A stretch of 64,000 nucleotides of DNA. Origin: Escherichia coli (GTDB lineage: Bacteria; Pseudomonadota; Gammaproteobacteria; Enterobacterales; Enterobacteriaceae). A model generated the notes under the pieces. That model was not told the DNA's origin and made no database searches. It worked only from the letters and a program-made list of their open reading frames with translations. The DNA lies in NCBI RefSeq assembly GCF_046105845.1, contig NZ_CP151004.1; one strand, 5' to 3'. Below, piece after piece: positions 7,329-14,694 of this stretch. Both the position numbers and the translations under genes were made by a program. The stretch's first letter is position 1, and the number at the start of each line of letters is the position of its first letter.

Positions 7329-7384
7329 TCACTCCGGGCGTTGCTGTGACAACGGTAACGCCCACATATTCTAAGGAGCTTTTT

Positions 7385-8674
7385 ATGAGCACCGCTTTGC
7401 TTGACGCCGTGGTGAAGAAAAACCGCGCGCGTTTAATTCCGTTTATGTTGGCGCTTTATGTGCTGGCGTTTCTCGACCGTTCGAATATTGGTTTTGCCAA
7501 ACAGACCTACCAGATTGATACCGGGCTGAGTAATGAAGCTTATGCGCTGGGAGCAGGCATTTTCTTTGTGGTATACGCGTTTCTGGGGGTTCCGGCGAAT
7601 CTTTTGATGCGAAAACTGGGGGCCAGAACCTGGATTGGTACGACAACACTGCTGTGGGGATTTCTTTCGGCAGCCATGGCATGGGCCGATACTGAAGCGA
7701 AATTTCTGATCGTTCGCACTCTGCTTGGTGCTGCGGAGGCCGGGTTTTTCCCTGGTATGATTTATCTCACCTCGCAATGGTTTCCGCAGCGTAATCGCGC
7801 CAGCATTATGGGGTTGTTCTATATGGGCGCACCGCTGGCGTTAACACTGGGATCACCGCTTTCCGGCGCGCTGCTGGAGATGCATGGATTTATGGGGCAT
7901 CCCGGCTGGTTCTGGATGTTTGTGATTGAAGGATTGCTGGCAGTCGGCGCTGGGGTATTCACATTCTTTTGGCTTGATGACACACCGGAGCAGGCACGTT
8001 TTCTGAGTAAACAAGAAAAAACGTTGCTTATCAATCAACTGGCAAGTGAAGAACAACAGAAAGTGACTTCTCGATTGAGCGATGCGCTGCGTAATGGCCG
8101 AGTCTGGCAACTGGCGATTATCTACCTGACCATTCAGGTGGCGGTTTACGGATTAATTTTCTTCCTGCCGACCCAGGTTGCTGCATTGCTGGGGACAAAA
8201 GTGGGTTTTACGGCGTCGGTGGTCACCGCCATTCCGTGGGTTGCGGCCTTGTTTGGGACCTGGCTTATTCCGCGCTATTCCGATAAAACCGGCGAACGGC
8301 GTAATGTCGCAGCGCTGACATTACTGGCGGCGGGCATTGGTATTGGTCTGTCCGGGCTGCTTTCTCCAGTACTGGCGATCGTAGCGCTGTGTGTTGCAGC
8401 CATCGGGTTTATTGCCGTGCAGCCGGTGTTCTGGACGATGCCGACACAACTGCTTTCCGGTACGGCGCTGGCGGCGGGGATTGGTTTTGTAAACCTGTTT
8501 GGTGCAGTGGGTGGGTTTATTGCCCCGATCCTGCGCGTGAAAGCAGAAACGTTGTTTGCCAGCGATGCGGCGGGATTACTGACGCTGGCAGCGGTGGCGG
8601 TCATCGGTTCGCTGATTATTTTCACTCTGCGTGTAAATCGCACTGTTGCGCAGACCGACGTGGCACATCATTAA
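7385..8674 (+). CDS. rhmT: MFS transporter for L-rhamnonate
   Basis: ATG at 7385 after AAGGAG gives 429 aa; multiple predicted TM helices, MFS-type. Confidence 0.85.
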
Positions 8675-8690
8675 TAGGTTAAGGAACACC

Positions 8691-9494
8691 ATGAACGCAT
8701 TATTAAGCAATCCCTTTAAAGAACGTTTACGCAAGGGCGAAGTGCAAATTGGTCTGTGGTTAAGCTCGACTACTTCTTATATGGCAGAAATTGCCGCCAC
8801 TTCCGGTTATGATTGGTTGCTGATTGACGGGGAGCACGCGCCAAACACCATTCAGGATCTTTATCACCAGCTACAGGCGGTAGCGCCCTATGCCAGCCAA
8901 CCCGTGATCCGTCCGGTGGAAGGTAGTAAACCGCTGATTAAACAAGTCCTGGATATTGGCGCGCAAACTCTACTGATCCCGATGGTCGATACTGCCGATC
9001 AGGCACGTCAGGTGGTGTCTGCCACGCGCTATCCTCCCTACGGTGAGCGTGGTGTCGGGGCCAGTGTGGCACGGGCTGCTCGCTGGGGACGCATTGAGAA
9101 TTACATGGCGCAAGTCAACGATTCGCTTTGTCTGTTGGTGCAGGTGGAAAGTAAAACAGCACTGGATAACCTGGACGAAATCCTCGACGTCGAAGGGATT
9201 GACGGCGTGTTTATTGGACCTGCGGATCTTTCTGCGTCGTTGGGCTACCCGGATAACGCCGGGCACCCGGAAGTGCAGCGAATTATTGAAACCAGTATTC
9301 GGCGGATCCGTGCTGCGGGTAAAGCGGCTGGTTTTCTGGCTGTGGCTCCTGATATGGCGCAGCAATGCCTGGCGTGGGGAGCGAACTTTGTCGCTGTTGG
9401 CGTTGACACGATGCTCTACAGCGATGCCCTGGATCAACGACTGGCGATGTTTAAATCAGGCAAAAATGGGCCACGCATAAAAGGTAGTTATTGA
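8691..9494 (+). CDS. rhmA: 2-keto-3-deoxy-L-rhamnonate aldolase (HpcH/HpaI family)
   Basis: ATG at 8691 gives 267 aa ([24 protein letters not shown]...). Confidence 0.9.
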
Positions 9495-9534
9495 TATCAA
9501 AGGCCCATGGGGATCGGCTGTGGGCCTGTGTTAA

Positions 9535-9708
9535 TTAGTGGTTATTCGCTGCCAGATCGGCTTCGCTTAGCTGGGTGGCAGCGAGCACCAGGTCACGATC
9601 AATGCCCTGTTCCAGCATGCGCAAGGCAATTTTAATGGCTTGTTCATGCATACCTTCCTGCCAGCCAATTTGGTGTCCTTCCTGCCGTAGCCGTTCAGCA
9701 ATAGTCAT
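9535..9708 (-). CDS. Possible internal in-frame small ORF (RpnS-like, 57 aa) in the 3' end of rpnB
   Basis: In-frame ATG at 9706-9708 preceded by AAGGAGAGATTA (strong SD, 6-nt spacer); encodes [19 protein letters not shown]...AANNH. Confidence 0.35.
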
Positions 9709-10437
9709 TAATCTCTCCTTTTGTAGTGGTGAACGTTCGGCAATCTCCTCAATAAAACGGGTGAAACGGGAGGTATCGCCGCATTGCAGCAGATAATTAA
9801 ACAGCGTTTGTAGCTGGCTGTCATTAGTGAAGCCTCTAACCAAAAGCGTGGTGATCCTGTCGACCATACCGATTAAATCGCGGTCGCGAATATGCTTTTG
9901 AATCAGTTCCAGCAGAGCTATACGCCGATGTTGCATGATCTCATCGTCAGGTACGATGGTGATATCCACCAACGGAAAAGCTTCGGTGTACAACTGCCGG
10001 GCAAGTTGCGGATCGTCAAACTCATCCAGCCAGTTGAGTGAGTACGGGTAGGGCGAGGTTTCGCCATGATAAAACAGTAACGGTACCACCAGCGGGACTC
10101 TGTCATAGCCTTTGTCCAGATGACGTTGCATGGCGGCAGTGGCATAGCGCATTAGCCGAAAGGCCATATTCTTTTCCGCTGAACTTTGATGTTCAATCAC
10201 GCAGTAGATATAGCCGTCACCGTCGCTGGTTTCCACCGACCACAAAACATCTGAGTAGTAAGCGCGTAAACTTTTTTCAATAAAACTGGTGGGTTCCAGG
10301 CGTAAGGTTTGCAGGTTACAAAGCTTGCGCAGTGGTTCTGGTAAATGTATTTCGAGAAAATCTCGCGCCGTATCGGGCGAGAACATAAAGGTTTTAAATA
10401 CCGCATCATGCGGGGAGGAGGTTGTTGATTCGGTCAT
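9535..10437 (-). CDS. rpnB: Rpn-family recombination-promoting nuclease (PD-(D/E)xK, transposase_31-like)
   Basis: 300-aa ORF; N-terminus HDAVFKTFM... and overall sequence characteristic of the YhgA/Rpn family (rpnB = yfaD). Confidence 0.8.
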
Positions 10438-10584
10438 GGTTGTCCGTCACCTGATATTTATGATGACGCGACATTACGGTTATCCCAGGCCTTTGACATC
10501 TGCCAGTTTCAGCCTTTGCGAGACGTTTTCAGAGGAATTTTCACTGCGTTGCAACGCATACACTGGGCACGGAATCGTGTACGC

Positions 10585-10616
10585 AAAAATGCCCGGTAAC
10601 AACATGCTTACCGGGC
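10585..10616 (-). terminator. Rho-independent terminator downstream of glpC
   Basis: 9-bp stem GCCCGGTAA/TTACCGGGC with 8-nt loop, followed on the minus strand by a T-run. Confidence 0.6.
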
Positions 10617-10629
10617 ATCAGAAAGGAGT

Positions 10630-14694
<4,065 letters not shown>

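Follow-up and report, generated by a model that had tools for sequence, protein, structure and literature searches.

An in-frame internal start in Escherichia coli rpnE yields the small protein RpnE-S, an instance of the published rpn gene-within-gene system

The gene-within-gene architecture of the rpn genes, including rpnE, was found in 2019 by initiation-site ribosome profiling, and its characterization as a toxin-antitoxin and anti-phage system followed in 2023. Ribo-RET peaks were detected at in-frame internal starts of all five rpn genes, and synonymous-site conservation was reported for yfaD (Meydan et al., 2019, bioRxiv 10.1101/520783). For the small protein of K-12 rpnE, initiation peaks by Ribo-RET and by Onc112 profiling have been described, as has an SPA-tagged product (bioRxiv 10.1101/520783; PMC10400941), and SPA tagging has revealed every one of the five small proteins, RpnE-S and YpaA (also denoted RpnE-Ss) among them (Zhong et al., 2023, PMC10400941). 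The production of RpnA-S, a dimeric three-helix bundle, was abolished by mutation of its RBS and ATG, and the growth inhibition, SOS induction and DNA cleavage caused by RpnL proteins were blocked by RpnS (PMC10400941). Hypervariable repeats, which begin 8-20 residues past the initiating Met, have a role in the specificity of L/S pairing; this specificity is set by repeat number, with RpnS preferring the cognate partner of equal repeat number (PMC10400941). Binding of RpnS to RpnL and inhibition of its toxicity or nuclease activity have been reported for RpnA, RpnB, RpnC and RpnP2, and for RpnE the reports are limited to expression of the small protein; protection against T-even phages was observed with the plasmid-borne RpnP2 only (PMC10400941). 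An earlier, sequence-only reading of the locus described below had proposed a small protein of the RpnS type with a modulating effect on the full-length nuclease, a proposal that agrees with the literature for the family and, for K-12 rpnE, with the published expression of the small protein. The contribution of such small proteins to phage defense that it also mentioned is published for RpnP2, but not for RpnE, for which expression alone is on record.

The window analyzed here, i.e., the whole stretch of 64,000 nucleotides taken from E. coli contig NZ_CP151004.1, harbors on its minus strand an ORF of 300 codons at positions 9535-10437. The encoded full-length protein, RpnE-L, matches the Pfam family PF04754 (Transposase_31, YhgA-like, PD-(D/E)XK) over residues 8-209 with an E-value of 8.7e-88. 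This was the sole match in a Pfam scan of the full-length protein, and a variable C-terminal tail lies beyond it. Two NCBIfam models were also matched, NF007418 with 703 bits (cutoff 583) and TIGR01784 with 172.6 bits (cutoff 52.1). The protein shares 95% identity with K-12 RpnE, compared with 67% for RpnB, 62% for RpnA and 50% for RpnC. The neighbors of its gene are glpC, on the minus strand at 10630-11895, and yfaU/rhmA, on the plus strand at 8646-9494, and apart from ypaA this is the K-12 gene order, glpC-rpnE-(ypaA)-yfaU, whereas K-12 rpnB is located between yfcH and hisP. The gene name at the matching locus is rpnE among the E. coli RefSeq records listed. The identity of 95% as opposed to 67%, the glpC/yfaU synteny and the RefSeq label thus identify the host gene as rpnE (yfaD) and rule out rpnB (yfcI), the name that it had been given from the sequence alone. 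At least 80% of the query was matched in 5,400 of the 5,426 complete E. coli genomes. When the window protein is aligned with K-12 RpnE, RpnC, RpnB and RpnA, the residues D11, D63, E82 and Q84 occupy invariant columns; all four are essential in RpnA (Kingston, 2017).

The current RefSeq (PGAP) product name of the gene is 'ISNCY family transposase,' and the intragenic small protein carries no annotation among the matches listed. The standalone downstream copy present in some genomes appears, among those matches, as 'hypothetical protein' or as 'Rpn/YhgA-type helix-turn-helix domain-containing protein.' It has been argued that the Rpn proteins are something other than conventional transposases (PMC10400941). 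Regarding the origin of the window, the stretches 9400-10600 and 30000-34000 reached a best identity of 98.4-98.6% among the 5,426 complete E. coli genomes, so that the source belongs to an E. coli-group lineage that has no near-identical complete genome in this collection. The second of these stretches, which comprises gyrA-ubiG-yfaL, matched E. coli genomes at a median of 11 places each, with a maximum of 29. A dispersed repeat must therefore be present within 30000-34000, possibly of the REP type or made of autotransporter repeats.

Within rpnE, an ATG at positions 9708-9706 of the minus strand, which specifies Met244 of RpnE-L, is preceded by the SD sequence AAGGAG at 9720-9715, encoded by Lys240-Glu241, with a spacer of 6 nucleotides (AGATTA) between the two; the minus-strand read of window positions 9740-9700 is ...CCACTACAAAAGGAGAGATTAATGACTATT... 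The frame opened by this ATG is that of the 300-codon ORF (10437-9535), with which it shares the stop at 9535, and its translation gives a product of 57 residues that matches the C-terminal end of the host protein residue for residue. The rpnE-S ORF thus spans 9535-9708 on the minus strand, stop included, and its product is predicted to form three helices. The coordinates, motif, length of 57 residues and identity with the C-terminal tail that had been proposed in the sequence-only reading are all confirmed by sequence and translation. The assignment of the ATG as the internal initiation codon (iTIS) draws on the conservation of the aligned column, the first residue of the structure 7TH0 (see below) and the published K-12 peaks. 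From 96 nucleotides before the ATG to 29 after it, the window and K-12 have the same sequence, and the K-12 initiation data consequently apply directly to this allele.

The pairing of the SD sequence with the 3' end of the 16S rRNA is predicted to contribute -8.7 kcal/mol, and in the predicted RNA fold of the start region both the SD and the ATG are found in an unpaired loop. Compared with shuffled sequences, the start region showed no excess structure (z = -0.18), with no sign of a regulatory structure, and a search of positions 9300-10700 with Rfam at E <= 1 matched zero RNA families. The combination AAGGAG-N4-9-ATG is present 3 times in the 64-kb window for 2.44 occurrences expected, which is not above chance. 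Since the count of the bare motif is at chance level, the significance of the start signals rests on their conservation. All three copies in the window nevertheless coincide with start codons, the other two with those of yfaV (probable, ATG at 7385) and glpB (13076), as placed against the K-12 gene lengths. In the case of yfaV, the mechanically called ORF starts with a GTG at 7346, but AAGGAG-N6-ATG is found at 7373-7387 on the plus strand, and the ATG at 7385 (MSTALLD...) is more likely to be the true start than the GTG. Two plus-strand ORFs overlapping the rpnE-S region, 9575-9796 and 9507-9635, were also considered. They are antisense to a frame with clear codon-level constraint, nothing was found to support either, and both were set aside.

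Conservation was assessed by scanning one genome per bacterial species, which yielded 80 Rpn loci, 77 of them with an intact long ORF. All are from Enterobacterales, the genera in the sample including Escherichia, Citrobacter, Salmonella, Klebsiella, Raoultella, Enterobacter, Kluyvera, Erwinia, Serratia, Yersinia and Photorhabdus. The aligned start codon is ATG in each of the 77 intact loci, as well as in all five K-12 paralogues and ypaA. The Lys at codon -4 is encoded by AAG in 67 of 67 cases and by AAA in none, compared with 29% AAG among the Lys codons elsewhere in these genes (Fisher p = 3e-34), and the Glu at codon -3 by GAG in 68 of 76 cases, compared with 41% elsewhere (Fisher p = 4e-18), both p-values being inflated by the phylogenetic relatedness of the 77 loci, whose independence is overstated. 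In contrast, the flanking codons are synonymously saturated. Pro at -7 is encoded by CCA, CCG, CCC and CCT in 21, 18, 21 and 14 loci, respectively, and Thr at +1 and Ala at +3 each use four codons. The contrast between the SD codons and their neighbors, seen within one and the same alignment, is unambiguous. Selection acts on the nucleotides of the start signals over and above the needs of the amino acid sequence, and the conservation of the SD and ATG independently of the encoded residues, which had been put forward earlier as a check on the internal start, is borne out by these counts.

The five K-12 paralogues and ypaA all have a GGAG-containing motif 6-7 nucleotides 5' of the aligned ATG. 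It takes the form AAGGAG in four of these genes (rpnA, rpnB, rpnE and ypaA); rpnD, with AGG, a rare codon for Arg, has AGGGAG, and rpnC has GGGAGGGGAG. Three loci have a nuclease part interrupted by one in-frame stop but have lost neither the SD and ATG nor the open small ORF. These are found in E. whittamii (L008:1501-2460, small ORF of 77 residues), in Citrobacter sp. (L067:1501-2361, 53 residues) and in Photorhabdus caribbeanensis (L084:1501-2397, 57 residues). They could represent cases in which the antitoxin was kept after loss of the toxin, or they could merely be recent pseudogenes. K-12 rpnD resembles them.

The strongest synonymous constraint of the whole rpn gene is found away from the SD, at codons 200-215, where the ratio of observed to expected per-codon synonymous entropy (H/Hexp) is 0.39 (codons 203-214), compared with a gene mean of 0.81, in an alignment of 78 Enterobacterales sequences. 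In this alignment, codon choice is almost or fully fixed at A204 (GCT 39/39), N205 (AAT 66/69), D206 (GAC 67/71), Q208 (CAG 70/77), F213 (TTT 70/70) and N214 (AAT 73/75). On the minus strand of the window, codons 205-214 encompass a candidate promoter for a short rpnE-S transcript (9796-9824), made up of ATGACA (9824-9819), a 17-nucleotide spacer and TTTAAT (9801-9796), approximately 75 nucleotides 5' of the SD. It matches 10 of the 12 positions of the sigma-70 consensus, and its -10 element lacks the usual A at position 2. A simple sigma-70 consensus scan of positions 9400-10650 called zero promoters; it missed ATGACA-17-TTTAAT because of this departure at position 2 of the -10 element, and the candidate emerged solely from the analysis of synonymous constraint. 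In dRNA-seq data, a TSS is present inside every rpn gene and the short transcript is more abundant than the full-length mRNA, and an internal promoter is drawn in Fig. 1A of the same study (PMC10400941). Judging from its sequence and the constraint on its codons, ATGACA-17-TTTAAT is a likely candidate for the internal promoter of the rpnE-S transcript.

A model of RpnE-S built with AF2 from 78 tails has a mean pLDDT of 79.5, which denotes moderate confidence, with helices at residues 3-33, 38-45 and 49-54. The best PDB match of this model in a Foldseek search was 7TH0, 'E. coli RpnA-S,' with a probability of 1.00, an E-value of 0.013 and TM scores of 0.62/0.76; the remaining matches had E > 1. 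Similarly, phmmer retrieved a single match among PDB sequences, 7TH0 ('Recombination-promoting nuclease RpnA'), over residues 244-298 of the window protein, and residue 1 of the 49-residue 7TH0 chain aligns with Met244. As modeled, RpnE-S has the three-helix fold of the RpnS proteins. A Pfam scan of the 57-residue product gave no significant match, DUF4351 (PF14261) included, the best being RepB_primase_C with E = 3.2; a reading of the tail as a standalone RpnS-like protein of the DUF4351 family was dropped on that account.

The first helix of RpnE-S contains a zone of four-residue repeats at residues 8-19 (9652-9687, minus strand), which is the site of repeat-number variation. The tails of rpnE orthologues differ in this zone by whole four-residue units of the xxEG type. 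At 57 residues, the tail encoded in the window is shorter than that of YpaA (61 residues), those of two Escherichia species (65), that of E. albertii (69) and those of E. whittamii and another E. coli (77 each). No other rpnE orthologue in this comparison has as few four-residue repeats as the window allele.

The K-12 rpnE (yfaD) locus has the same arrangement glpC-rpnE-yfaU and the same SD, spacer and ATG as the window, for a protein identity of 95%, and the first 34 residues of RpnE-S are the same in both. In K-12, however, a second, standalone copy, ypaA (rpnE-Ss, 61 residues), is located between rpnE and yfaU, where it has the same SD-ATG right after a stop codon. Alignment of the two loci reveals in K-12 an insertion of approximately 200 bp, corresponding to the second half of the rpnE-S tail and the start of ypaA, that is absent from the window. 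Comparison of window positions 9495-9534 with the corresponding K-12 segment (L001:4305-4542) confirms that ypaA is absent, with 40 bp between the stops of rpnE and yfaU. At the place of the K-12 ypaA insertion, between the two convergent stops, the window has a GC-rich, terminator-like hairpin with a 10-bp stem (9501-9527), which is possibly a shared terminator of rpnE and yfaU.

The tail encoded in the window begins like K-12 RpnE-S (...WQEGMHEQ) and ends like YpaA. K-12 RpnE-S ends with ...FEREIVLATTQLTDADIPNCH, whereas the ypaA-type ending found in the window is common to the single-copy rpnE of other Escherichia. The idea that the window allele might be a fusion of the N-terminal part of rpnE with ypaA was abandoned because, in the other Escherichia species compared, rpnE is present in a single copy with the same ending. 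This distribution suggests that the single-copy form is probably ancestral and that the K-12 ypaA arose by a later duplication; gain and loss of such copies have been described (PMC10400941). Of 60 E. coli genomes sampled across the ranking of matches, approximately half had a one-piece match of about the length of the query, with a span of some 1,200-1,260 bp, as would be expected of the single-copy arrangement, and about a third had a K-12-like span of 1,396 bp. Positions 9500-9830, which reach from the candidate promoter to the hairpin, were matched at 99% or more in 183 genomes.

Taken together, these observations are best accounted for if the internal start of rpnE yields RpnE-S as an intragenic antitoxin that holds RpnE-L inactive, a reading to which we assign a probability of about 0.85. 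The template for RpnE-S would be a short transcript, probably made from the promoter around codons 205-214, and/or the full-length mRNA. Ribosomes would bind to the AAGGAG of Lys240-Glu241 and initiate at Met244, and the product would adopt a three-helix bundle by analogy with RpnA, RpnB, RpnC and RpnP2. Its long, repeat-bearing first helix would pair with the identical domain of RpnE-L, and this pairing would keep the nuclease inactive until a trigger releases RpnE-L; phage infection and alkaline pH are examples of such triggers from the published cases. By the same analogy, we infer an antitoxin function for RpnE-S, toxicity for RpnE-L and a role of the pair in defense. PADLOC v2.0.0 matched no defense-system model.

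A rather improbable alternative is that RpnE-S is made but does not serve as an antitoxin, RpnE-L being catalytically silent and the small, HTH-like protein acting, for example, in DNA binding or regulation, or in cross-talk with other Rpn paralogues. None of the overexpression assays, whether of recombination, of toxicity or of SOS induction, revealed activity of K-12 RpnE (Kingston, 2017), and a toxin activity for RpnE-S to counteract may thus not exist; the K-12 record for rpnE reads 'inactive recombination-promoting nuclease-like protein.' The weaker structural neighbors of the RpnE-S model are HTH DNA-binding domains, e.g., those of the Mu transposase I-beta and of TrpR-like proteins, and relatedness of the small proteins to HTH motifs by HHpred, together with possible housekeeping roles, has been put forward for the family (PMC10400941). 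On the other hand, the residues essential in RpnA are all conserved in the RpnE of the window. In the assays that reported inactivity, RpnE-S was produced from the same constructs, and the host contributed further RpnE-S and YpaA from its chromosome; toxicity could thus have been masked, as has been raised for the rpn family (PMC10400941). The published specificity of RpnS for a cognate partner with an equal number of repeats also argues against it.

It is far less probable still that the AAGGAG is a by-product of a conserved Lys-Glu pair or an SD-like site of pausing in elongation, with no initiation at Met244. The chance-level frequency of the motif in the window would fit with this, and Lys-Glu and Met244 are conserved residues that could serve the full-length protein. 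However, the choice of AAG and GAG at these codons, and the use of AGG-GAG in rpnD, reveal a constraint beyond the amino acids. In K-12, where the sequence is identical, initiation-inhibitor peaks and a tagged small protein have been obtained, and the equivalent mutation of the RBS and ATG abolished RpnA-S. Moreover, the standalone ypaA of K-12 retains the SD-ATG immediately past a stop codon.

The production of an intragenic antitoxin thus remains the preferred reading of the internal start. An extension of it, which we consider doubtful, albeit less so than either alternative above, is that RpnE is not 'inactive' at all. The toxicity of the K-12 protein would be masked by RpnE-S and YpaA, and single-copy, minimal-repeat alleles such as this one would constitute a repeat-tuned toxin-antitoxin defense module in which ATGACA-17-TTTAAT sets the S:L ratio. 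An allele that is present in a single copy, in a genome region devoid of ypaA, would provide a cleaner background for the question of RpnE-L toxicity. The locus also illustrates that a real internal start could be recognized from sequence alone, and that the rpnE small protein is still omitted from current RefSeq annotation.

Next to K-12 rpnE, the closest known systems are RpnA-L/RpnA-S, RpnB, RpnC and RpnP2. They share with RpnE the Pfam family and the position of an internal Met with its SD, and with the predicted RpnE-S a three-helix small protein and a zone of four-residue repeats in helix 1. As paralogues, they are 50-67% identical to the window protein, and they differ from RpnE in that toxicity, antitoxin action and complex formation, and for RpnP2 also phage protection, have been demonstrated for them, whereas for RpnE it is expression only. 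Among them, rpnB (yfcI) has an AAGGAG-N6-ATG internal start as in rpnE but differs by its locus, yfcH-rpnB-hisP, and by its tail of 53 residues. More distant parallels are arcB and Cas10d/Cas11d, mentioned in the cited papers, and mcrB, whose mcrB-S product is annotated in K-12. As in rpnE, initiation at an internal, in-frame codon toward the 3' end of the gene gives rise to a C-terminal isoform, and the proteins and their functions are unrelated to those of rpnE. The internal start that makes RpnE-S is, in this company, an already known instance of the published gene-within-gene system.
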